Origin: Nitrospirota bacterium
Lineage (GTDB): Bacteria > Nitrospirota > Thermodesulfovibrionia > Thermodesulfovibrionales > BMS3Bbin05
Length of the DNA stretch: 25,394 bases
Direction: 5' to 3'
Assembly (NCBI GenBank): GCA_020351835.1
Contig: CP070669.1
Span: forward strand, 1,575,999-1,601,392
The translations under genes were made by a program, and so were the position numbers. A model generated the notes under the pieces. That model made no database searches. It had not been told where the DNA came from and worked only from the letters and a program-made list of their open reading frames with translations. Below, one piece after another: positions 165-25,348 of the stretch. Numbering within the stretch: position 1 is the first letter of the stretch; each line of letters begins with the position of its first letter.

Positions 165-192
165 TTGACATAGTTTTAAAGCGATGTATAAT
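165..192 (+). promoter_or_regulatory. Sigma-70-type promoter for the small Sec-ORF/radical SAM cassette
   Basis: Perfect -35 TTGACA (165-170), 16-nt spacer, perfect -10 TATAAT (187-192) with TG directly upstream (185-186). The predicted TSS near 199 gives a leader of about 100 nt before the ATG at 301. Confidence 0.6.
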
Positions 193-300
193 TAGAAAAT
201 ATACCTATTGATAAATGTTTCTTTATAGGTAATGTCTATATAGATTGTTTCAACTCACGATCAGGGTCTTTTTTGTGATTTTTATCGAAAGGAGGTGAAT

Positions 301-513
301 ATGGACCTTAAAGAGCTGAAAAAGATACTTTCCGGTCTAGGGCTCGCCGGCCTTATAGCCGGTGCAAGCTTAATGGCTGCCGGCTGTGCAAGCACTGGCG
401 CAAGCGGTTGAGGAGCAGATAAGGCACCACCGGCCAAAAGCGGCTGAAGTGGTAGCTCCGGTGCAGGTAGCACCGATAATCCCGAAGGGAAAAGTGGTTG
501 AAGTTGATCTTAA
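301..513 (+). CDS. sbtA: Candidate selenocysteine-containing RiPP precursor/lipoprotein-like peptide (SbtA-like), 70 codons with 4 in-frame UGA
   Basis: AGGAGG (290-295) lies 5 nt before ATG 301. Reading UGA as U, the translation is MDLKELKKILSGLGLAGLIAGASLMAAGCASTGASG-U-GADKAPPAKSG-U-SGSSGAGSTDNPEGKSG-U-S-U-S-stop(TAA 511-513). The in-frame TGAs are at 409, 445, 499 and 505. Three of them follow Ser-Gly (AGC GGT TGA, AGC GGC TGA, AGT GGT TGA). Purine-rich first codon positions and high GC continue in the same frame past every TGA, then end at the TAA. The N-terminus looks like a signal peptide with a lipobox-like AAG/C. The gene sits directly upstream of a radical SAM/SPASM enzyme. Confidence 0.6.
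426..453 (+). promoter_or_regulatory. SECIS-like hairpin candidate for UGA-409
   Basis: ACCACCGGCC (426-435) pairs with GGCUG..GUGGU (442-453). This gives 10 bp including one G-U, a 2-nt AA bulge (447-448) and loop AAAAGC. The loop starts 27 nt after U409. The 3' arm contains the second UGA (445-447). There is no G in the first loop positions, so the match is imperfect. Confidence 0.3.
459..475 (+). promoter_or_regulatory. SECIS-like hairpin candidate for UGA-445
   Basis: CGGUGC (459-464) pairs with GCACCG (470-475), a 6-bp perfect stem with loop AGGUA. The loop starts 20 nt after U445 and has G at loop positions 2-3. Confidence 0.35.
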
Positions 514-533
514 CGTGCAGTTTGCACAATTAA
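510..533 (+). promoter_or_regulatory. SECIS-like hairpin candidate for UGA-499/UGA-505
   Basis: UUAA (510-513) and GUGCA (515-519) pair with UGCAC (523-527) and UUAA (530-533). The apical loop is GUU (520-522). There is a small internal loop (C514 opposite A528, A529). The loop starts 21 nt after U499 and 15 nt after U505. The 5' arm includes the terminal TAA. Confidence 0.35.
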
Positions 534-550
534 AGTAGTTCAAGGATGAT

Positions 551-586
551 AGGAACGGTGTGTTAAATAAATAGCACACCGTTCCT
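551..586 (+). terminator. Strong intergenic hairpin between precursor and maturase (partial terminator/attenuator or RNA-stability element)
   Basis: AGGAACGGTGTG (551-562) and CACACCGTTCCT (575-586) form a perfect 12-bp stem with a 12-nt AT-rich loop. The hairpin is followed by TATTTAG, a weak and interrupted T tract. Confidence 0.45.
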
Positions 587-639
587 TATTTAGTGGCTTT
601 CACGTAATCCTCAAAAATAATATAAAATAACTTAGGGAT

Positions 640-2253
640 ATGAGTAAGAAAAACGAAAGAAACGGGCTGATAAATGTACTTGAGGTCTTCCCAAGGACTG
701 CATCGATGTTAAATGACATAGTTAACGAAGAGATCATAAATAAATTCGGGATAGATCTTGAGCGTTTTCCGGATGAAGTAGAAAATATAAAGGAAAGCTA
801 TTCTCTTAAGGATTATATTGGTGATGTTGCAAGAATTGAGTATGCTCGTTTTAAAGCTAAAAATACTGAAGAAAGCATAGAGGAGCCGGAAAATAGAACG
901 GTCAATCCGTCATTTCAGCTTTTACAGGTCTCGTGGCAGAACCTTATATCGATCTTTAACGGAGATGACAAGGGTAAGGGTAATGGTAATGACATTATCA
1001 GTGGTGACCAGCTGATAATGGTTTGGAAGGACAAGGATGAAGATGAAGTAAGAATGGAGTATGCTTCGTCTGACGACCTGCTTGCGCTCAAGATAGTGGT
1101 TGAGGGGATAGGGCCTGAAGATTTAGTTAGTGATACAGACCTCACTATCGGCAAGATCGATAATGTTATAAGGAGTTCCATCGAAAAGGGGATATTGATA
1201 GCACCACCTTCTTCATTGGTCAGAGACCCGGATATCTTTAAGGAGATAAAGGATACTGGTGAGGAGTTCCTGGTTGCCGATACATTCACTTTGCAGTGGC
1301 ATATAACACAGAGCTGTGACCTTCACTGTAAACATTGTTACGACAGGAGCGACAGGACAAATACAGACCTTGCTGATGCTATAAGGATACTTGATGATAT
1401 GAGATCATTCTGCCTCGAGAGAAATGTAAAAGGGCATATTTCTTTCAGTGGAGGTAATCCCCTTATGCATCCTGATTTCCTCGATATATACAATGCTGCT
1501 TCCGACAGAGGTTTTTCTTTGGCTATCCTCGGTAATGTTGCTTCTAGAAAGCAACTAAAAGATATTATTGCTATACAGATGCCGGGATTTTACCAGGTAA
1601 GTCTCGAGGGGCTTGAAGGTCATAATGACAGTATTCGCGGTGAGGGATATTTCAGGAGAGTAATGGATTTCCTGACGGTGCTAAAGGAGTTGGGTATCTA
1701 TTCGATGGTTATGCTCACACTTACAAATGAAAATATCGATCAGGTGATCCCTCTTGCGGAACTCCTCAAGGGTAAAGTAGATAGCTTTACATTTAACCGC
1801 CTGTCTCTTGTAGGTGAGGGTGCATCTCTCAAAATGGCAGACAATGAAAAGTTCAGGAAATTCTTAGAGGACTATATTGAGCTGGCAGGAAAGAACAAGC
1901 ATGTAAGGCTAAAGGATAACTTTATCAATATTATCAGGAGAGAAAAGGGCCAAAACCCGTTCGGAGGATGCGCGGGGTACGGGTGCAGTGCCGCATTCAA
2001 TTTTATCACGGTTTTGCCGGACGGAGAGGTGCATGCATGCAGAAAGTTTCCATCAAAGATCGGCAGAATAATGGATGTCTCTCTTTCGGAACTGTATGAC
2101 TCGGAAATGGCGAAGAAATACCGTTCGGGACCTGAGGAATGCAGGGGTTGCGATATCCGTGCAGTATGCGGTGGATGTATGGCTGTAGCATACGGTTGCG
2201 GGAAGGACGTATTTAAAGAAAAGGACCCTTTTTGCTTCATGCGTTTGGTATAG
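640..2253 (+). CDS. sbtM: Radical SAM enzyme with C-terminal SPASM domain; probable peptide maturase (SbtM-like thio(seleno)oxazole-forming family)
   Basis: 537-aa ORF. The CxxxCxxC motif CDLHCKHCY has Cys codons at 1315, 1327 and 1336. SFSGGNP is a GGE-like SAM-binding motif. The Cys-rich C-terminus (GGCAGYGCSAAF...HACRKF...CRGCDIRAVCGGCMAVAYGCG...DPFCF, about 1965-2240) is typical of SPASM auxiliary Fe-S clusters. About 220 aa precede the radical SAM core. The start is uncertain: ATG 640 has AGGGA only 1 nt upstream, while ATG 706 has AAGGA 8 nt upstream. The radical SAM/SPASM call is secure. The SbtM assignment rests on gene context. Confidence 0.85.
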   Translation: MSKKNERNGLINVLEVFPRTASMLNDIVNEEIINKFGIDLERFPDEVENIKESYSLKDYIGDVARIEYARFKAKNTEESIEEPENRTVNPSFQLLQVSWQNLISIFNGDDKGKGNGNDIISGDQLIMVWKDKDEDEVRMEYASSDDLLALKIVVEGIGPEDLVSDTDLTIGKIDNVIRSSIEKGILIAPPSSLVRDPDIFKEIKDTGEEFLVADTFTLQWHITQSCDLHCKHCYDRSDRTNTDLADAIRILDDMRSFCLERNVKGHISFSGGNPLMHPDFLDIYNAASDRGFSLAILGNVASRKQLKDIIAIQMPGFYQVSLEGLEGHNDSIRGEGYFRRVMDFLTVLKELGIYSMVMLTLTNENIDQVIPLAELLKGKVDSFTFNRLSLVGEGASLKMADNEKFRKFLEDYIELAGKNKHVRLKDNFINIIRREKGQNPFGGCAGYGCSAAFNFITVLPDGEVHACRKFPSKIGRIMDVSLSELYDSEMAKKYRSGPEECRGCDIRAVCGGCMAVAYGCGKDVFKEKDPFCFMRLV

Positions 2254-12491: not shown

Positions 12492-12947
12492 CTAACGCCC
12501 GGTCCCGTTCTTCTTAAGCAGCTCACTTATTTTACGGTTCTTTCTGGACATGGAGGTCATTAAAGCTGTCTTTCCGTAAATGTCCTTCTTTTCAGTATCT
12601 GCTCCGTTTTCTAATAATATCTTTACGATAAGGGGGTTCCCTGTGACGACGGCCCACATCAGTACCGTTGTGCCTTCACTGTCGCTTGCATTTACATCGG
12701 CTCTTTTGGAAATAAGGAACCTGGCCATCTTAACATTCTCATTGACCACTGCCCACATGAGAGTTGTCTTTCCGTAATGGTCCCTCGTGTCCACAGGGAT
12801 GCCTGAGTTCACGAGCTCCATTACCTTGGCCGTGTCATTATGGTATGCATATTTGATTATCTTATGGACGCTCTTCGAGGCAGACAACGAAATGCTGGGG
12901 GCAACAAGGCATATTATAATAACGAATATAATTTGTCTGAAGGACAT
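12492..12947 (-). CDS. Secreted ankyrin-repeat protein
   Basis: 151 aa with an N-terminal signal peptide (MSFRQIIFVIIICLVAPSISLSA/SKS). About three ANK repeats follow (GKTTLMWAVVNENVKMARFLISKRADVN, GTTVLMWAVVTGNPLIVKILLENGAD, GKTALMTS). Confidence 0.8.
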   Translation of the reverse strand: MSFRQIIFVIIICLVAPSISLSASKSVHKIIKYAYHNDTAKVMELVNSGIPVDTRDHYGKTTLMWAVVNENVKMARFLISKRADVNASDSEGTTVLMWAVVTGNPLIVKILLENGADTEKKDIYGKTALMTSMSRKNRKISELLKKNGTGR

Positions 12948-16037: not shown

Positions 16038-16134
16038 TATTGCGTTTTCTTTGGTAAGAGGGGTTCGTAAAGATCGGAAACCCTGTGTTTTATCTGGGAA
16101 AAGCTAGTTCAAAATAACTAATTGGAGGTTGCTC

Positions 16135-16788
16135 ATGAGACTCGTCTTACTTGGTGCGCCGGGTGCCGGGAAAGGTACACAGGCCAAGAAGCTTATTGAG
16201 AAATATCAGATCCCACAGATCTCTACAGGTGATATCCTCAGAAAGGCCGTCGCAGACGGAACTCCGCTTGGAAAAGAGGCTAAGTCATACATGGATAAGG
16301 GTGAGCTTGTACCGGATTCGGTCGTTATAGGGCTGGTCAAGGAGAGGCTTTCCCAGGACGATTGCACGAACGGTTATATACTGGACGGATTCCCGAGGAA
16401 CACTGCTCAGGCAGAGACACTTGATAGTGTGCTCGCAGACATGAACGCGTCACTGGACGTAGCACTTAGCGTGGATGTAGACATGGACATCCTTATGAAG
16501 AGGCTTACAGGAAGAAGGACATGCAAGTCATGCGGTCAGATGTTCAATGTGCATTTCTCTGCACCTAAGAAAGAAGGGATCTGCGATAAGTGTGACGGTG
16601 AGCTTTATCAGAGGGATGATGATCAGGAAGAGACGATCAAGAAGAGGCTTGATGTGTACGAGGAACAGACCGCTCCGTTGATAGATTATTATTCGAACAA
16701 GGGGATACTTACCAGTGTAAATGGTGTAGGCAATATGGAAGATATCTTTAAAGAAGTCATAGCGAAGCTTGACACGGTTACGAAATAA
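16135..16788 (+). CDS. adk: Adenylate kinase (long form with Cys4 zinc lid)
   Basis: GGAGG lies 6 nt before ATG 16135, so the track's TTG 16129 start is less likely. The protein begins [16 protein letters not shown] (P-loop). The lid is CKSCGQ...[14 protein letters not shown]. Confidence 0.95.
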
Positions 16789-16811
16789 ATAACCTTATTA
16801 AGGAGGAAGAG

Positions 16812-18023
16812 ATGGCATTAGTTAATCCGCATGGTAAGGACAAAAAGCTGAAACCTCTTATTCTCGAGGGAAGTGAGCTCGAGGCAGCGAAGAAGAAGGC
16901 TGAATCACTTAAGAAAGTACCTATGACCTCAAGGGAGACCGGTGACCTCATTATGTTAGGTATCGGCGGTTTTACCCCGCTTGAGGGTTTTATGGGATAC
17001 GAGGACTGGAAGGACGTATGTGACGACATGAAAACCTCGGATGGAACGTTCTGGCCTATCCCGATCACTCTGTCAGCCGACAAGGATCTCGCCGACAGCA
17101 TCAAAGAGCATGAGGAAGTAGCTCTTGTTGATGAGGAGAGTGGCGAGACCATGGGTATCATGACAGTACGTGAGAAGTACACAATAGACAAGGCTCATGA
17201 GTGCCAGCAGGTATTTACAACGACCGATATGGAACATCCGGGTGTCGCAAAGGTTATGGAACAGAAAGAGGTAAACCTGGCCGGTCCGGTGCAGGTCCTG
17301 AGCGAAGGTTCATTTCCGACAGAGTATAAAGGTATCTACATGACACCGGCGGAGTCAAGGAAGCTCTTCTCAGAAAAAGGCTGGTCGACAGTTGCAGCGT
17401 TCCAGACAAGAAATCCTATGCACCGTTCTCATGAGTATCTTGCAAAGATAGCCATCGAGATATGTGATGGTGTTTACATCCACATGCTCCTTGGTAAGCT
17501 AAAGGCGGGAGATATCCCGGCAGACGTAAGACAGAACGCTATTGATACACTTACCGAGAACTACTTCACAAAGGAAACAGTTTCAGTTGGCGGATATCCA
17601 CTCGATATGAGATATGCTGGCCCAAGAGAGGCGCTTTTGCATGCGGTGTTCAGGCAGAACTTCGGATGCAGCCACCTTATCGTAGGTCGTGACCATGCAG
17701 GTGTTGGTGACTACTACGGACCCTTCGATGCACATGAGATATTTGATAAGATCCCGGAAGGCGCACTCGAGACACAGCCGCTCAAGATCGATTGGACATT
17801 CTGGTGCCACAAATGTGATCAGATGGCATCAATGAAGACATGTCCGCATGGTAAGGATGACAGGCTCATACTAAGCGGTACAAAGCTAAGAAAAATGCTC
17901 TCAGAGGGCGAGGATGTATCAGAGAAGTTCAGTCGTCCCGAGGTTCTTAAGATCCTGAGGAATTACTATGAGGGTCTCACCGAAAAGGTCGAGATCAAGA
18001 TGCACAAGCATGCTGAAGGATAA
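16812..18023 (+). CDS. sat: Sulfate adenylyltransferase (ATP sulfurylase), dissimilatory type
   Basis: 403 aa with the [11 protein letters not shown] and GRDHAGVG motifs. A CHKC...CPH cluster near the C-terminus resembles the Zn site of bacterial Sat enzymes. AAGGAGG RBS. The gene starts 23 nt after adk. Confidence 0.95.
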
Positions 18024-18115
18024 AGCAGGATTATGGGTTGCCATCATTTTGATGGCTGAGTTTTGCAAACAAGCGGCTTACTTTAGGTCGCAAACATCAA
18101 GAAGGAGGTATATGT

Positions 18116-18553
18116 ATGCCTAGTTATGTGATCACTGAAAAATGTGACGGCTGTAAAGGTCAGGAGAAGACAGCCTGTATGTACATCTGTCCTAATGACC
18201 TGATGAAGCTGGATCGCGACAGGATGAAGGCATGGAACCAGGAACCCGATCAGTGCTGGGAGTGCTACAACTGTGTTAAGATCTGCCCTCAGCAGTCAAT
18301 CGAGATCAGGGGTTACCAGGATTTCAATCCGCTCGGTGGAAATGTTATTCCTCTCAGGGGTACAGATTCCATTATGTGGACTATCAAGTTCAGGAACGGC
18401 GTTCTCAAGAGGTTCAAGTTCCCTATCAGGTCGACCGCTGAAGGTTCAGTAGATCCTTATGCAGGTAAGCCGGAAGCTGACCTCTCAAAGATCAAGCAGC
18501 CAGGTCATTTTACGCAGCAGGGTGCTGGCGTAGAGATGCCAACAATAAAGTAA
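18116..18553 (+). CDS. aprB: Adenylylsulfate (APS) reductase beta subunit
   Basis: 145 aa beginning MPSYVITEKCDGCKG...CMYICP and containing CWECYNCVKICP (two 4Fe-4S motifs), with the typical AprB C-terminal tail. AGGAGG lies 7 nt upstream. Confidence 0.95.
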   Translation: MPSYVITEKCDGCKGQEKTACMYICPNDLMKLDRDRMKAWNQEPDQCWECYNCVKICPQQSIEIRGYQDFNPLGGNVIPLRGTDSIMWTIKFRNGVLKRFKFPIRSTAEGSVDPYAGKPEADLSKIKQPGHFTQQGAGVEMPTIK

Positions 18554-18572
18554 TAAAGGAGGTTTAAAAAAG

Positions 18573-20576
18573 ATGGAAAAAGAAACTTGCACATTTTCAT
18601 ATTGCGAGAAGCCCGAAGTTATCGAGCATGAAACTGATCTCCTTATCATTGGTGGCGGAATGTCAGCATGTGGTGCTGCTTTCGAGGCTACCAGGTGGGC
18701 CAAGGGTCAGAACATCAGGATAACGATGGTCGACAAGGCCGCAACGGACAGAAGTGGTGCTGTTGCAATGGGACTTTCCGCGATCAACACTTACATGGGT
18801 CAAAACGATCCGGCAGATTACGTAAGGTACGTCAGGAACGACCTTATGGGTATTATCAGGGAAGACCTCGTATACGACCTCGGAAGGCACGTTGATGATT
18901 CAGTTCATCACTTCGAGGAGTGGGGACTTCCGATCTGGAAAAAGGGAGATGAAGGATTCTCACTTGACGGTTTCCAGGCAAGGGATGCAGGAAAGCCGAT
19001 GCTTAAGGACGGTGGAACACCTGTCAATTCAGGCCGCTGGCAGATCATGATAAACGGTGAGTCTTACAAGGTCATCGTTGCTGAGGCTGCAAAAAAGGCT
19101 CTCGAGATAAACAGGCAGGAGACCGGAGTTGAAGAGAACCACTTTGAAAGGGTTTTCATTGTTAAGCTTTTCAAGGATGCTAACGTAGATAACCGTGTTG
19201 CTGCGGCAGCAGGTTTCAGTGTTCGCGAGAACAAGATCTATTTCTTTAAGGCAAAAGCTATGTTGCTTGGTGCCGGTGGTGCGGTTAACGTGTTCAGACC
19301 CAGGTCCAGTAAGGAAGGACAGGGGCGTGCATGGTACCCTGTTTGGAACTCAGGTTCCGGATACGCTCTCGGTATGCAGGTAGGTGCAGAGCTTACCCTT
19401 ATGGAGAACAGGTTCGTCCCGGCCCGTTTTAAGGATGGTTACGGTCCTGTTGGTGCATGGTTCCTCTTCTTCAAGGCGAAAGCCACGAACAGCCTTGGTG
19501 AGGACTACTGTGCTAATGAAGAGGCACTGGCAGAAGCAAAGGCCAAGTATGGCTCTTATGTAGATAAGCTCGGTACAGCAATCAGGAACCACCTGATGAT
19601 GAGGGACATGAAGCTCGGTAAGGGCCCGATCCTTATGAGGACCGACCAGGCTATGGATGCGATCAGTAAGGAAATGATCGAGAAACTTGGTGAAAAAGAA
19701 GGAAAGAAGAAGATCAAGCACCTTGAAGCAGAGGCATGGGAAGACTTCCTTGATATGTGTATCGGCCAGGCCGGTCTCTGGGCATGTGATAACGTTGAGC
19801 CAGATAAGGTTCCGTCCGAGATCATGCCGACAGAGCCTTATATCCTAGGTTCCCACGCTGGTTGCGCTGGATTCTGGGTAAGCGGGCCTGACGATCTCGG
19901 CGCTCCTGTTGAGTGGCACTGGGGCTACAACAGGATGTCGACCGTTACCGGTCTCTTCATGATGGGTGACATCTGCGGAGCATCAGGTCACAAGTTCTCT
20001 TCCGGCTCGCACGCAGAGGGCAGGATAGCCGGTAAAGCAGGTATAGCATTCATCCTTGATAACAAGGATTATTCACCTGCCATCAAGGAGTCGATGGATG
20101 ACATATCAGCTGAGCTCTACCTCCCATACGAGATGTACGAGAAGTACAAGAACTTTACGACCGATCCTAAGATGAACCCACACTACATCAAGCCTGACCT
20201 TCTCCAGACCAGGCTCCAGAAGATAGCTGACGAGTACTTCGGCGGCTGCTCAACATGGTACATGACTTCCAAGACCATGCTCGAGACGGGTCTCAAGAAG
20301 CTCGAAGTTCTTAAAGAGGATGCAGCTAAGCTTGCTGCCGCTGATCTTCATGAGCTGATGAGATGCTGGGAGAACTATCACAGGGTTCTTTCTCTCGAGG
20401 CACATGCACGTCATATCCACTTCAGGGAAGAGTCCAGGTATCCTGGATACTACTACAGAGGTGATTTTGACAAGATCGATGATGAGAACTGGAAGTGCTT
20501 TACAAACTCGGTCTACAATGCAGAAGACCTCACCTGGGAAATGAAAAAGGTTCCTTACGTACAGCTTGTAGACTAA
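18573..20576 (+). CDS. aprA: Adenylylsulfate (APS) reductase alpha subunit (FAD flavoprotein)
   Basis: 667 aa with the FAD-binding N-terminus DLLIIGGGMSACGAAFEA. The protein is a fumarate-reductase-family flavoprotein and sits immediately downstream of aprB. Confidence 0.95.
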   Translation: MEKETCTFSYCEKPEVIEHETDLLIIGGGMSACGAAFEATRWAKGQNIRITMVDKAATDRSGAVAMGLSAINTYMGQNDPADYVRYVRNDLMGIIREDLVYDLGRHVDDSVHHFEEWGLPIWKKGDEGFSLDGFQARDAGKPMLKDGGTPVNSGRWQIMINGESYKVIVAEAAKKALEINRQETGVEENHFERVFIVKLFKDANVDNRVAAAAGFSVRENKIYFFKAKAMLLGAGGAVNVFRPRSSKEGQGRAWYPVWNSGSGYALGMQVGAELTLMENRFVPARFKDGYGPVGAWFLFFKAKATNSLGEDYCANEEALAEAKAKYGSYVDKLGTAIRNHLMMRDMKLGKGPILMRTDQAMDAISKEMIEKLGEKEGKKKIKHLEAEAWEDFLDMCIGQAGLWACDNVEPDKVPSEIMPTEPYILGSHAGCAGFWVSGPDDLGAPVEWHWGYNRMSTVTGLFMMGDICGASGHKFSSGSHAEGRIAGKAGIAFILDNKDYSPAIKESMDDISAELYLPYEMYEKYKNFTTDPKMNPHYIKPDLLQTRLQKIADEYFGGCSTWYMTSKTMLETGLKKLEVLKEDAAKLAAADLHELMRCWENYHRVLSLEAHARHIHFREESRYPGYYYRGDFDKIDDENWKCFTNSVYNAEDLTWEMKKVPYVQLVD

Positions 20577-20589
20577 TTATAGCTTCAAA

Positions 20590-20620
20590 TTGGATGGGCA
20601 GGTCATTCCTGCCCATCCAA
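20590..20620 (+). terminator. Strong hairpin between aprA and qmoA (partial terminator or mRNA-stabilising stem-loop)
   Basis: TTGGATGGGCAGG (20590-20602), loop TCATT, CCTGCCCATCCAA (20608-20620): a 13-bp perfect stem. It is followed by A5 and then TTTT, so there is no immediately adjacent U tract. Confidence 0.5.
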
Positions 20621-20703
20621 AAAAATTTTGCTTTGAGCCTTCAGGTCTGAAGATCTTTAAACGATAATCAGGCTTGAATCTTCAAAGCGAACGGAGGAAA
20701 AAC

Positions 20704-21960
20704 ATGGCTGAAAACAAGGATATTCTTGTAATCGGAGGCGGAATTAGCGGTCTTACTACAGCTATTGAGGCAGCCGAAGCCGGATACAATGCGACTATAG
20801 TAGAGCGCAATCCGTATCTGGGTGGACGTGTCGCACAGCTGTTCAAGTATTTCCCAAAGCTCTGTCCTCCCTATTGTGGTTTAGAGATAAACTTCAAGAG
20901 GATCAAGACAAACCCCAGGATAACGTTCTATACAGGGGCAGAGGTAGAGAACATCGGCGGCAACGAAGGTGATTTCACAGCTTCTGTAAAGGTCAACGCA
21001 AGGAAGGTAAATGAGAAATGCACAGCATGCAATGCGTGCGTAGAGGCATGTCCCGTTGAAAGACCGAACGATTTTAATTTCGGTATGGACACGACCAAAG
21101 CTATATATCTTCCGCATGATCTGGCGTTCCCGATGAGATACGTTATAGACAGCAGTGTCTGCAAGGGGTCGGAATGCAACAAGTGTAAGGAAGCATGTAA
21201 GTACGATGCAATAGACCTGGACATGCAGGATAAGGCGGTCGAGATCAATGTCGGCAGTATAGTGACTGCAACCGGATGGAACCCTTATGATGCGACCAAG
21301 ATGGATAACCTTGGTTTTGGAAAAATCAAAGATGTCGTTACCAATATGATGATGGAAAGGCTGTCAGCACCTAACGGTCCTACAAAGGGTGCTATCAAGA
21401 GACCGTCTGACGGAAAGGATGTTCAGAGCATAGCCTTTGTTCAGTGTGCAGGCTCAAGGGATGAGAACCATCTGCCCTATTGTTCTGCGATATGCTGCAT
21501 GGCATCTCTGAAACAGGCTACATATATAAGAGAAAAGAACCCTGAATCGGATGTCTATATCTTCTATATAGATCTCCGGGCACCGGGCAAGTATGAGGAT
21601 TTCCTCAACAAGATAGATGCTGATGAAAAGGTAAAGCTGATCAAGGGAAAGGTCGCCAAGATCGAGCAGGATGGTGACGGAGTAGTTGTAACTGCTGAGG
21701 ATGTTATAGGCGGCGGCAAGATCAACCAGAAGGTAGACATGGTCGTACTGGCAGCGGGAATGGAATCAGCACTTAAGGGAAGCAACCTCTTGTCCACAAT
21801 TAAGACAGAGGAGAGTGATTTTGCAGTGTCAGAAGGTCAGACTGAAGGCATATACGCTGCCGGTGTAGCAAGCAGACCGAACGATGTTACAACCTCGGTC
21901 CAGGGGGCTACCGGCGCCGCGTTGAAAGGCATACAGAGTCTGGTGAGGAGGTCTGAATAA
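20704..21960 (+). CDS. qmoA: Quinone-interacting membrane-bound oxidoreductase subunit A (HdrA-like flavoprotein)
   Basis: The start is ATG 20704 (MAENKDILVIGGGISG) with GGAGG upstream, so the track's TTG 20674 start is less likely. The protein is HdrA-like and carries ferredoxin-type Cys motifs (CTACNACVEACP). It sits in the apr-qmo context. Confidence 0.9.
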   Translation: MAENKDILVIGGGISGLTTAIEAAEAGYNATIVERNPYLGGRVAQLFKYFPKLCPPYCGLEINFKRIKTNPRITFYTGAEVENIGGNEGDFTASVKVNARKVNEKCTACNACVEACPVERPNDFNFGMDTTKAIYLPHDLAFPMRYVIDSSVCKGSECNKCKEACKYDAIDLDMQDKAVEINVGSIVTATGWNPYDATKMDNLGFGKIKDVVTNMMMERLSAPNGPTKGAIKRPSDGKDVQSIAFVQCAGSRDENHLPYCSAICCMASLKQATYIREKNPESDVYIFYIDLRAPGKYEDFLNKIDADEKVKLIKGKVAKIEQDGDGVVVTAEDVIGGGKINQKVDMVVLAAGMESALKGSNLLSTIKTEESDFAVSEGQTEGIYAAGVASRPNDVTTSVQGATGAALKGIQSLVRRSE

Positions 21961-24198
21961 ATGAGCGAATCTAAATTAGGTCTATATATATGTACAGATT
22001 GCGGGATCGGTGATTCTCTGAACGTAGAAGATTTGCAGAACGCAGGCAAGGCAAAGGGTGCGGCCGTTATTAAGACCAATCCCTTTTTATGCAGCCAGGA
22101 GGGAGTGCAGGTCATCAAGGATGACATCAATAATGAGGGTGTCAATAAGATCGTTATAGCTGCATGTTCCCAGAGAGTTAACACAGATGCGTTTGAGTTC
22201 GATCCTCTGAAATATGTTGTAGAAAGGGTCAACCTGAGGGAACACGTTGTATGGTGCCAGCCACCAAACACCGATGAGACCCAGGCAATGGGTGAGGACT
22301 ATATAAGGCTCGGTGTCGTAAGGGCTATGAAGTCAGAGTGCCCGGTGCCGAAGATAACTGATATCAACAGGGACATCCTTGTTGTAGGTGGCGGAGTTAC
22401 GGGCCTGACTGCTGCCCTGGAAGCGGCTAAAGCTGGATCAAAGGTGATCCTTACAGAGAAACAGGCAGAGCTTGGCGGATGGGCTAGGAAGATGCATAAG
22501 GTCACGCCGACGAAGCCGCCGTTCACTGAACTGGAAAAGCCGGTGATCGGCAATAAGATCGACGAGGTTAATGCAAACGACAATATAAAGGTCTATACCG
22601 GAACAACAATAAAGAGCATAGCTGGAGAGCCCGGTATGTACAAGGCTACTCTCGATGTTAATGGCTCGGAAGAGACAGTGGAGATGGGAGCGGTGATCCT
22701 TGCCACAGGCTGGCAGCCTTACGACGCGGCCAAACTTGATAACTACGGCTATGGGAAGATCAAGAATGTCATTACGAACGTTGAGATGGAAGAGCTTGCC
22801 GCAAAGGGCAAGTTAGTAAGACCGTCCGACGGCAAAGATGCAAAGAGCGTAGTGTTCATTCAGTGTGCCGGACAGAGGGATGATAAGCATGTCCCGTACT
22901 GTTCATCAGTATGTTGTAATGTATCTCTCAAGCAGGCCATGTATGTAAGAGAGTCCAACCCTGACGCAGGTGCTTATATCATATACAAGGATATGAGGAC
23001 CCCGGGACTATATGAGAACTTCTACAAGGCAGCTCAGGATGATGAAGGCATATTTCTGGCAAAGGGTGAGTTCCTTGGCGTAGAAGAGGCCGGTGACGGC
23101 AGTGTATTGGTTGAGGTAGATAACCAGCTGCTTGGAAAGAAGGTGAAGATACAGGCCGATATCGTTGTACTTGCAACCGGTATGGTAACAAGCCTGATGC
23201 CGGAAGGTTTTGATGTTAACAACCTTACACCTGAGTATGTAGGGAATATTGTCAGGAAAGAGACCCAGGACGGTGTTATAGAGGAAATAGAAGCAGTACC
23301 TACAACACTTAATCTGGCTTACAGGCAGGGCCCGGAGATGCCGCACCTTAACTACGGTTTCCCGGACTCACATTTTATATGTTTCCCTTATGAGACCAGA
23401 AGGACCGGCATTTATGCTGCAGGAGCCGTTAGACATCCTATGGATTCGGTTCAGTCGGCTGCAGACGCCGCAGGTGCTGCACTAAAGGCGATACAGTGTC
23501 TTGAGCTCACGGCGCAGGGAAAGGCAGTTCATCCCAGATCTGGAGATCAAACATTCCCCGAGTTCAGGCTGGAGTCCTGTACACAGTGCAGGAGATGTAC
23601 GGTAGAGTGCCCGTTCGGGGTACTTGATGAAGATGAGAAGGGAACTCCCAAGGAGCATCCTTATCGTTGCCGCCGTTGCGGTACCTGTATGGGAGCATGC
23701 CCCCAGAGGATAATCAACTTCAAGAACTACAGTATCGATATGATCTCATCGATGATGAAGTCGGTCGAGATCGATGACGAAAGTGAAGAGCCGTTCATAA
23801 TCGGTCTCATTTGTGAGAACGATGCATATCCGGCGCTCGATATGGCAGGACAGAACAGGATACAGTACAGCCCTAACTTCAGGTTCATAACACTCAGGTG
23901 TCTTGGCGGTACTAACCTGGTATGGGTTGCCGATGCTCTGTCCAAGGGTGTTGACGGCATATTGTTGATCGGTTGTAAGTATGGAGATGACTACCAGTGT
24001 CACTTTGTTAAGGGAAGTCAGATGGCAAACGAGAGGCTTGGAAAGGTCCAGGAAACGCTGGACAGACTGATGCTGGAATCTGACAGGATACAGCAGGTTC
24101 AACTCGGAATAAACGAGTGGGACAAGCTTCCGGAGATACTTAACGAGTTCTCTGATGAACTTAAGGACCTCGGACCTAACCCTTATAAAGGATTCTAG
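21961..24198 (+). CDS. qmoB: Quinone-interacting membrane-bound oxidoreductase subunit B (HdrA-like plus MvhD-like domain)
   Basis: 745 aa with the FAD motif ILVVGGGVTGLTAA. The HdrA-like core is paralogous to QmoA (ATGWQPYDAAKLDNYGYGKIKNVITN versus ATGWNPYDATKMDNLGFGKIKDVVTN). It has 2x4Fe-4S motifs (CTQCRRCTVECP, CRRCGTCMGACP). The C-terminal domain is MvhD-like (RCLGGTNLVWVADALSKGVDGILLIGC). Confidence 0.9.
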   Translation: MSESKLGLYICTDCGIGDSLNVEDLQNAGKAKGAAVIKTNPFLCSQEGVQVIKDDINNEGVNKIVIAACSQRVNTDAFEFDPLKYVVERVNLREHVVWCQPPNTDETQAMGEDYIRLGVVRAMKSECPVPKITDINRDILVVGGGVTGLTAALEAAKAGSKVILTEKQAELGGWARKMHKVTPTKPPFTELEKPVIGNKIDEVNANDNIKVYTGTTIKSIAGEPGMYKATLDVNGSEETVEMGAVILATGWQPYDAAKLDNYGYGKIKNVITNVEMEELAAKGKLVRPSDGKDAKSVVFIQCAGQRDDKHVPYCSSVCCNVSLKQAMYVRESNPDAGAYIIYKDMRTPGLYENFYKAAQDDEGIFLAKGEFLGVEEAGDGSVLVEVDNQLLGKKVKIQADIVVLATGMVTSLMPEGFDVNNLTPEYVGNIVRKETQDGVIEEIEAVPTTLNLAYRQGPEMPHLNYGFPDSHFICFPYETRRTGIYAAGAVRHPMDSVQSAADAAGAALKAIQCLELTAQGKAVHPRSGDQTFPEFRLESCTQCRRCTVECPFGVLDEDEKGTPKEHPYRCRRCGTCMGACPQRIINFKNYSIDMISSMMKSVEIDDESEEPFIIGLICENDAYPALDMAGQNRIQYSPNFRFITLRCLGGTNLVWVADALSKGVDGILLIGCKYGDDYQCHFVKGSQMANERLGKVQETLDRLMLESDRIQQVQLGINEWDKLPEILNEFSDELKDLGPNPYKGF

Positions 24199-24238
24199 GT
24201 ATTGTGAAAATAATTAACCTTTTATCGGAGGTATAAAT

Positions 24239-25348
24239 ATGGCTGAAGAAACAATAATAACTCCTGATCTGAATTTTGTCAGGTCATTGAAAGGAGCAGG
24301 AGCCGAGACGCTGAAAAAGTGTTACCAGTGTGCAACGTGCTCTGTTGTATGCCCGATCTCGCCGGATGACAAACCTTTCCCTCGTAAGGAGATGGTGATG
24401 GCGCAGTGGGGTATGAAGCAGGAGCTGGCGGCCGATCCGGATGTATGGCTATGCCATAACTGCAATGATTGCTCCAAGTACTGCCCCAGAGGAGCAAGGC
24501 CTGGAGACGTGCTGAGCGTAATGAGGCAGAAGGCTATTGAAGAGAACGCGGTACCGGGATTCATGGGAAAGATAGTCAGGAACCCGTTCCTTGCTCTGCT
24601 GATCCCGATAATCCTGTTCCTTGCGGTGCTTGGCTCCACCGGTCACCTGAAGGCGCCTGGTGAGGGTGCAATTGAGTATTCGAACTTCATGCCGGTAACC
24701 TACATCGAGATCATATTCATGTCAGCGGTAGGTCTGGCCGGAATTACATATCTGGTGAGCCTTATGAAGTTCTGGAAGACGATGGGGTCAAACGGTGCTG
24801 CAACGTCAAAGGGTTTTGTCCCTTCGCTGATAGCAACACTGGTTGAGCTTATCTCACATAAGCGTTTTGCCAAGTGTGAGGCAAACGGTGACAGAAGGAT
24901 AGGGCATCTGCTGGTGCTGTATGCATTTATCGGTCTTGCTATAACGACTATATGGATCACTTACTACTATTATGTGCCTCACATCGAGACGCACATACCG
25001 CTTAGTGACCCTATGAAATGGCTTGGTAATGGTAGCGCCGCAGCGCTGATCATCGGTTCTCTGATACTTGTAGCTAACAGGATGAAGGATAAGGGGATAG
25101 ACACCATAAGTTCTTCCTTTGACTGGACTTTCCTTATCATGATAGTACTGCTTGCCATATCGGGTATTGCCACCGAAGCAGTAAGGCTGGCGGGGATCAA
25201 GTCAATTGCTTATCCGGTCTACTTTGTTCATCTTGTGTTTGTTTTCTATACGATCGTCTATTTCCCGTATTCCAAGCTTGCTCATATGGGATACAGGGCA
25301 TTGGCTATAACCTATGCAAAGATGGCTGACAGAGATGTTCAGCTGTAG
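24239..25348 (+). CDS. qmoC: Quinone-interacting membrane-bound oxidoreductase subunit C (HdrC-like Fe-S domain fused to HdrE/NarI-like membrane cytochrome b domain)
   Basis: 369 aa. The N-terminus has CYQCATCSVVCP and CHNCNDCSKYCP. About six TM helices with conserved His residues follow. GGAGG RBS. Confidence 0.9.
   Translation: MAEETIITPDLNFVRSLKGAGAETLKKCYQCATCSVVCPISPDDKPFPRKEMVMAQWGMKQELAADPDVWLCHNCNDCSKYCPRGARPGDVLSVMRQKAIEENAVPGFMGKIVRNPFLALLIPIILFLAVLGSTGHLKAPGEGAIEYSNFMPVTYIEIIFMSAVGLAGITYLVSLMKFWKTMGSNGAATSKGFVPSLIATLVELISHKRFAKCEANGDRRIGHLLVLYAFIGLAITTIWITYYYYVPHIETHIPLSDPMKWLGNGSAAALIIGSLILVANRMKDKGIDTISSSFDWTFLIMIVLLAISGIATEAVRLAGIKSIAYPVYFVHLVFVFYTIVYFPYSKLAHMGYRALAITYAKMADRDVQL

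Follow-up and report, generated by a model that had tools for sequence, protein, structure and literature searches.

Peptides of the SbtA/SbtM system are the closest described relatives of the locus analysed here. According to two published accounts (PMC9204691; PMC11002830), Haft and Basu (2011) predicted a selenocysteine (Sec)-containing precursor with a Sec insertion sequence (SECIS) adjoining sbtM, and Bandarian's group (Lewis et al. 2021) reported that SbtM turns a Gly-Cys/Sec unit into a thio(seleno)oxazole. [quoted passage not shown] We analysed a stretch of 25,394 nucleotides (nt) from a Nitrospirota bacterium (the window; GenBank contig CP070669.1, positions 1,575,999 to 1,601,392 of the forward strand), in whose coordinates all positions below are given. 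The small gene near its start is a real sbtA of the known SbtA/SbtM selenium-peptide system. As a whole, the locus is best explained, and we say so with high confidence, by 301-507 being sbtA, the gene for the ribosomal precursor that gives rise to a thio(seleno)oxazole peptide, with the adjacent SbtM as its maturase.

An earlier note on this DNA, made from the sequence alone, had described a small open reading frame (ORF) with repeated in-frame TGA codons, and the layout it gave was borne out by reading the sequence. The ORF runs on the plus strand from ATG 301 to TAA 511-513 and passes in-frame TGA codons at 409, 445, 499 and 505 but neither TAA nor TAG on the way. A Shine-Dalgarno sequence, AGGAGG (290..295, +), lies 5 nt ahead of the ATG; GAAAGGAGGTGAA is invariant in the window and in three loci of the survey described below (L006, L008 and L009), and AAGGAGGTG is also kept in L001-L004. 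G+C content is 0.56 in 301-408 and 0.54 in 409-510, compared with 0.32-0.34 in both flanks, as expected from the note's description of a high G+C that persists through the TGAs before the sequence turns AT-rich. The genetic code is standard, because 6 of the window's 22 other genes terminate in TGA, and on this point too the note, which had dismissed a reassigned code, was right. The likeliest translated span (301..507, +) comprises 68 codons and the stop codon TGA 505-507, as judged from translation, the TIGR04081 model and homologues, and its predicted product is MDLKELKKILSGLGLAGLIAGASLMAAGCASTGASG-U-GADKAPPAKSG-U-SGSSGAGSTDNPEGKSG-U-S. In this product S-G-U occurs three times within a Gly/Ser-rich core: TGA 409..411 (+) corresponds to Sec37 in the context ASG-U-GAD, TGA 445..447 (+) to Sec49 in KSG-U-SGS and TGA 499..501 (+) to Sec67, the penultimate residue, in KSG-U-S. 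The Ser-Gly-TGA context that the note had pointed out at three of the four TGAs thus holds for 409, 445 and 499, while TGA 505 differs in context.

Contrary to the note, the plus strand is not without a listed ORF here. The ORF list contains a 38-residue, GTG-started version of the small gene at 295-411 (+), and GenBank annotates a 36-residue version, UCG77609.1, which equals codons 1-36 of the window ORF and is named "selenobiotic family radical SAM modification target peptide". Gene callers also end related sbtA genes at the first TGA where these are called at all (L007, L009). Two minus-strand ORFs that overlie sbtA, 282-473 and 370-579, were considered and dismissed as lacking support.

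Family membership was assessed with TIGR04081, the model for the SbtA family thio(seleno)oxazole RiPP (a peptide made by ribosomes and modified after translation) natural product precursor, which has a curated cutoff of 30.5 bits. The 70-residue reading scored 37.8 bits and the 36-residue reading 40.8 bits, with residues 1-26 aligned to positions 1-26 of the 27 in the model. These residues form most of the leader (residues 1-29; 301..387, +), which ends with a lipobox-like M-A-A-G-C at Cys29 (codon 385-387). The peptide had no match among Pfam models even at E = 10; its 36-residue homologues carry the precomputed Pfam label PF27804 GSU1558_StbA-like. On the same strand, 127 nt past the TAA of sbtA, starts sbtM (640..2253, +), which encodes a radical S-adenosylmethionine (SAM)/SPASM maturase of 537 residues with the CxxxCxxC motif CDLHCKHC. 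It scored 709.7 bits against TIGR04082 (thio(seleno)oxazole modification radical SAM maturase SbtM; cutoff 350), covering positions 1-516 of 516, contains Pfam domains PF04055 and PF13186, and is 100% identical to UCG77610.1 from a Nitrospirota metagenome-assembled genome (MAG). The TIGR04081 assignment suggested by the earlier note is therefore confirmed, and so is its core reading of a Sec-recoded small ORF of the SbtA family whose product the radical SAM enzyme encoded downstream takes as substrate. The novelty it implied is not, as the ORF is already named in GenBank and multi-Sec precursors are the rule in the family. Gene and family assignment are public; only the portion past the first TGA is absent from the records.

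SbtM loci were gathered from genomes, exact-protein look-ups and metagenomes, and their upstream regions were searched with a hidden Markov model (HMM) derived from the leader. An SbtA gene was present upstream of SbtM in 73 of the 90 loci fetched, giving 68 distinct precursors, in which Sec was counted by reading TGA through up to the first TAA or TAG. Counted in this way, 30 precursors have two in-frame TGAs, 29 have three and three have four, with a single TGA in three and none in another three; the note's remark that selenoproteins with several Sec are very rare does not apply to this family. The context of the TGAs is nearly always [S/G/T][G/S]-TGA-[S/G/T]-G. Ahead of the codon SG was found at 69 sites, SS at 50 and GS at 18, and SG follows it at 66 sites, so that TGA 445, with SG on both sides, has the context seen most often in the family. 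Homologues carrying Cys in place of Sec, which the note had named as support for recoding, were also found. SbtA of L011 and L088 has Cys codons at all TGA positions, L015 has Cys where L024 has Sec, and in L066 a Sec copy is accompanied by a paralogue that has Cys, GSG-x-G and SSG-x-G sites being common to both; further Cys-containing homologues aligned with TGA include L010, L019, L021 and L035.

Conservation past the TGAs in orthologous upstream regions, likewise sought by the note, was evident between the window and a relative, L008. Over the 11 codons between TGA 409 and TGA 445, the window and L008 have 2 identical codons, 6 synonymous differences and 3 non-synonymous ones, and the other two frames of the same stretch are not conserved. 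Because the differences are mostly synonymous and the other frames unconserved, translation continues past TGA 409, the frame beyond which is under protein-level selection. A module U-xG(D/E)K(A/D)PPx(K/Q)(S/N)(G/S)-U is common to the window, L006, L008 and L009.

Two of the TGAs are followed by hairpins of the type that recruits the Sec insertion machinery in Escherichia coli. The hairpin of TGA 445, CGGUGC-AGGUA-GCACCG (459..475, +), begins 11 nt after the codon, encodes part of SGAGST and fits the consensus GGUGCAGGUnGCACC. That of TGA 499, GUGCA-GUU-UGCAC (515..527, +), begins 13 nt after the codon and lies past the stop, in the 3' untranslated region (UTR); a 3'-UTR SECIS for a C-terminal Sec works in E. 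coli (PMC10778597). Most homologues have AGUGCA-GUU-UGCACU, or compensatory variants of it such as GUGCG-GU-CGCAC, just past the stop and after the last Sec codon. Throughout the family, 129 of the 176 in-frame TGAs have a hairpin of 5-8 base pairs that begins 10-17 nt downstream (mode 14), with a loop of GGU, GUU, GUC, GGUC or AGGUA/G. A gapless alignment of the 99 distinct hairpins has the consensus nnnGGUGCAGGUnGCACCnAn, in which the loop G is invariant. As the hairpins were chosen for having stems, the percentage of paired positions is biased, and compensatory changes, which are not, were scored instead: 7 of 8 stem pairs have changed on both sides, and double-change cells numbered 162. 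Shuffling gave 54 +/- 9, with none of 500 shuffles attaining 162, and each slid control gave 11-38. The SECIS of E. coli fdhF (NC_000913.3), UGA + 11 nt + GGUUGCA-GGUC-UGCACC, is essentially the same element. For comparison with the background, 7% of the 915 TGA triplets on both strands of the window pass a loose hairpin rule and 0.8% (7) a strict one, and TGA 445 and TGA 499 are two of these seven. The other five were rejected as selenoprotein sites, being out of frame with the ORFs checked (7803, 16136) or having poor hairpins. In a few loci two TGAs 9-24 nt apart, both necessarily read, seem to use one SECIS: L062 (codons 37 and 40, 20 and 11 nt from the hairpin), L016 (codons 40 and 46, 28 and 10 nt) and the L066 precursor at 1373 (codons 35 and 43, 37 and 13 nt).

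TGA 505 (505..507, +) is most likely the true stop codon, and the product predicted from the sequence is then of 68 residues with Sec37, Sec49 and Sec67, ending in '...EGKSG-U-S-stop', and not the four-Sec peptide with the C-terminus KSG-U-S-U-S that the earlier note had read. Three Sec are favoured because of spacing and homology. Only 7 nt separate TGA 505 from the last hairpin, whereas family TGAs that are necessarily read through lie at least 10 nt from theirs. In L046, L053, L070 and L089 a second TGA stands two codons past the last Sec and 6-8 nt before the hairpin (U-S-TGA in L053, L070 and L089; U-G-TGA in L046), and this can only be a stop, because the tail that follows it, 9 residues in L046 and up to 111 in L053, is unconserved. 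Eight homologues (L006, L010, L018, L019, L022, L038, L041 and L060) have a like architecture, ending in '...U-X-TAA/TAG' with X being S, N, D or T. Were all four TGAs decoded instead, the product would have 70 residues and end in KSG-U-S-U-S, the 515-527 hairpin would serve both TGA 499 and TGA 505, and TAA 511..513 (+), otherwise an in-frame back-up stop, would be the stop codon. Such a product would be well defined, with the TAA one codon beyond TGA 505; one hairpin appears to serve two near TGAs in L062, L016 and L066; and Ser before Sec is common (SS-U at its 50 sites). We nevertheless consider it unlikely, given the spacing, the two groups of homologues and the absence at TGA 505 of the customary Gly after Sec.

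At the other extreme, the ORF might truly end at TGA 409, as annotated in GenBank, with 36 residues translated and the rest untranslated RNA. Gene callers do stop there, and TGA 409 is without a canonical SECIS, yet the product would hold no Sec/Cys target for SbtM, and the frame downstream is conserved as protein, most of its differences being synonymous, and contains two TGAs with canonical SECIS hairpins. Coding-level G+C moreover extends up to 510, and the continuation is alike in all 73 loci, so this reading is very improbable. The same slight probability attaches to the idea that the TGAs are read through as something other than Sec, by near-cognate insertion of Trp or Cys or under a reassigned code, since TGA ends 6 of the 22 other window genes, the hairpins match the SelB-binding fdhF SECIS and covary, homologues exchange TGA specifically for Cys codons, and SbtM accepts Sec peptides in vitro (PMC9204691). 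Several observations do weigh against the preferred reading, a three-Sec sbtA product with a signal-peptide-like leader. No fdhF-type hairpin occurs within 10-37 nt of TGA 409, the nearest canonical one being 47 nt off; Rfam at gathering thresholds gave no match in the window; and the 25-kb window contains no tRNA genes by ARAGORN, so no tRNA-Sec, and no selA, selB or selD. The TAA stands one codon past TGA 505, so read-through at that point would leave no detectable tail. Finally, the lipobox is only near-canonical ([LVI][ASTVI][GAS]-C), with Ala at -3, and 32 of the 68 homologues are without the Cys. Our verdict is that the Sec-recoding interpretation is correct; family, chemistry and truncated ORF were already known.

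For TGA 409 a candidate element is found in a different hairpin, ACCAC-CGGCC / AAAAGC / GGCUG-AA-GUGGU (426..453, +), which begins 14 nt after the codon and holds TGA 445 in its 3' arm. The segment 409-460 folds with a minimum free energy of -19.7 kcal/mol (z = -2.65), and the hairpin appears in the consensus fold of the window, L006, L008 and L009, mostly via sequence identity, which at 426-453 is what the Pro-Pro and Ser-Gly codons would impose anyway. The hairpin is a candidate non-canonical recoding element. TGA 409 is not alone in the family: about 35 other TGAs in Sec context are without an fdhF-type hairpin, each with another TGA 36-48 nt further downstream, within modules that are short and repeated. 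They include the first two TGAs of L001, L013, L044, L048, L051, L061 and L068 and the middle TGA of L015, L024, L026, L030, L040 and L043. At many of these sites a hairpin with an A-rich loop begins 0-4 nt after the TGA. When compared with shuffles, a hairpin close to the UGA was found at p <= 0.1 for 45% of the SECIS-less sites and 8% of the canonical ones; the stems are short, however, and the enrichment is confounded by the Gly, Ala and Pro codons. TGA 409 itself has no perfect UGA-proximal hairpin. One subfamily has two repeat modules that differ in their stem, GGCG/CGCC and AGCG/CGCU. That decoding dispenses with an fdhF-type SECIS within workable range for about a fifth of the sbtA TGAs in Sec context, TGA 409 included, is a tentative proposal, and we lean towards doubting it. 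If true, there would be a second class of bacterial recoding element, or SelB would have an unusually long reach where multi-Sec modules are tightly repeated; and in the same mRNA a UGA six nucleotides past a Sec-UGA would be a stop purely by spacing.

The survey yielded some further observations on SbtA genes. Tandem SbtA pairs occur upstream of one SbtM in L066 (1373-1678 and 2034-2363), L013, L044, L048, L051, L061 and L068; in L066 one copy has Sec and the other Cys at matching sites. The L008 precursor (2632-2865) closes with a tandem TGA TGA after '...GAGGTDESK', an ending by which UGA serves in one short gene both as Sec codon (twice) and as double stop. A gene of L065 (2006-2407, minus strand) joins an SbtA-like leader containing one TGA to a C-terminal part of about 90 residues that has a CxxCH motif (CNTCH) and resembles a cytochrome c domain.

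Upstream of sbtA, the perfect promoter claimed by the earlier note is present: a sigma-70-type TTGACA (165-170) and TATAAT (187-192), separated by a 16-nt spacer (165..192, +), match the consensus at 12 of 12 positions. TTGACA-16-TAGAAT lies about 110-118 nt upstream of the sbtA ATG in L006, L008 and L009. Just downstream of the -10 box, within the 5' UTR of about 100 nt, is an AT-rich inverted repeat (202..231, arms 202-215 and 218-231, TACCTATTGATAAA / TTTCTTTATAGGTA) whose 14-nt arms are 79% complementary. The block is kept in the alignment with the nearest relatives, and L009 has a longer equivalent at 2473-2516; it could be a repressor operator, for example a metal-responsive one, or an RNA hairpin. 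Between sbtA and sbtM a terminator-like hairpin (551-586, a 15-pair stem) is followed by a T-rich tail (together 551..596, +), and L008 has a comparable GC hairpin and T run after its sbtA. The element is a probable attenuating terminator, which would leave more precursor mRNA than enzyme mRNA.

The leader looks like a lipoprotein signal peptide: K4, K7 and K8 are followed by a 17-residue hydrophobic stretch and then by M-A-A-G-C29. A lipobox-like Cys is found in 36 of the 68 homologues, and many others end in Ala-x-Ala-like sites. Such a leader, with Cys29 in a lipobox-like motif, makes export of the modified 39-residue core probable and a lipid anchor possible; by analogy with the 5-thiooxazole bufferins the modified core may bind metal. 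On the enzyme side, residues 1-215 of SbtM (640-1290) form an N-terminal extension ahead of the radical SAM core. It is without a Pfam domain and without a match among solved structures, the matches in the Protein Data Bank (SkfB, 5wgg) beginning at residue 198-218. This extension of about 215 residues is a candidate leader-binding domain.

We propose that sbtA would be transcribed from the strong promoter at 165-192 and translated from ATG 301, with Sec inserted at TGA 409, 445 and 499. SelB with Sec-tRNA(Sec) would be recruited by the fdhF-type hairpins at 459-475, in the ORF, and 515-527, in the 3' UTR, and the 426-453 hairpin may act for TGA 409; decoding in the source organism presumably depends on SelB. 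Translation would end at TGA 505, which is presumably too near the last hairpin for recoding, with TAA 511 as back-up. SbtM would then recognise the conserved N-terminal leader and convert each X-Sec unit to a 5-selenooxazole, through two SAM-dependent oxidations that, in the chemistry described in the literature, start at the Sec beta-carbon. The modified core would finally, and probably, be exported, possibly as a lipid-anchored peptide, and may bind metal as 5-thiooxazole bufferins do.

Elsewhere the window codes for an Mrp-type antiporter, two TauE proteins, Na+/H+ antiporters, adenylate kinase, Sat, AprBA and QmoABC. The genes adk, sat, aprB, aprA, qmoA, qmoB and qmoC (16129-25348) lie on one strand and form a complete dissimilatory sulfate-reduction block, which marks the host as a sulfate-reducing, Thermodesulfovibrionia-like member of the Nitrospirota. 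A 151-residue ankyrin-repeat protein is encoded between the TauE and cation/proton antiporter genes (12492-12947, minus strand) by the only substantial minus-strand gene in the window.

The practical value of the analysis is an annotation fix: the public record ends at codon 36, so the portion of the precursor in which all its selenium lies is missing from databases. For the SbtA family as a whole the results supply rules for re-annotation, namely the Sec-TGA context, the hairpin consensus, a spacing of 10-17 nt, and a TGA less than 10 nt from the hairpin being read as stop. The signal-peptide/lipobox leader bears on the role of the peptide, and the SECIS-less TGAs bear on serial Sec insertion. 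SbtA/SbtM is present in Nitrospirota, from the survey, and in Thermodesulfobacteriota, from the GenBank names of SbtM homologues, a range beyond the quoted 'Geobacter and Desulfobacteria'.

Two groups of peptides modified by oxidative enzymes that depend on multinuclear non-haem iron (MNIOs) offer parallels to SbtA. In bufferins, BufA is modified by the MNIO BufB with BufC, Cys is converted to 5-thiooxazoles, and the products, which have a Sec-pathway signal peptide, are exported copper binders (PMC11626156). SbtA is likewise a ribosomal oxazole-type peptide with a signal-peptide-like N-terminus in place of a classical leader, whereas the bufferin enzyme is an oxygen- and iron-dependent MNIO and SbtM a radical SAM enzyme, and bufferins have no selenium and no sequence relation to SbtA. 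The neighbours of sbtA are SbtM and the mrp antiporter operon and not MNIO (DUF692) or DUF2063 genes; the likeness to bufferins is functional only. The RiPP-lipoproteins DybA and NedA begin with a lipoprotein signal peptide that includes a lipobox Cys, and the modified core is lipidated (PMC13056109). The SbtA leader of the window is similar in ending with M-A-A-G-C; in contrast, the enzymes acting on DybA and NedA are MNIOs, and about half of the SbtA homologues are without the Cys.

At the level of RNA, the SbtA consensus GGUGCA-GGU-nGCACC, located 10-17 nt past the UGA and with an invariant loop G, is nearly identical in sequence to the upper stem-loop of the E. coli fdhF SECIS. Unlike fdhF, whose bulged U is absent from the SbtA consensus, the sbtA mRNA has several elements, one of them outside the ORF, and about a fifth of the family TGAs in Sec context, TGA 409 included, are without an element. 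The locus is closest to SbtA/SbtM of Geobacter and Desulfobacteria, with which it shares a two-gene cassette, where the gene for a small precursor, its leader conserved, immediately precedes that for a radical SAM/SPASM enzyme, in-frame TGAs followed by SECIS, Sec in a Gly/Ser-rich context, and scores above the cutoffs of both HMMs. It differs in that the host is a sulfate-reducing Nitrospirota MAG, that the motif is S-G-U-(G/S)-(A/G) where the literature quotes 'GGUG', and that the window precursor has, on the reading preferred here, three Sec where the literature gives 'at least two', its last Sec being the penultimate residue, served by a SECIS located in the 3' UTR and followed two codons on by TGA as stop.

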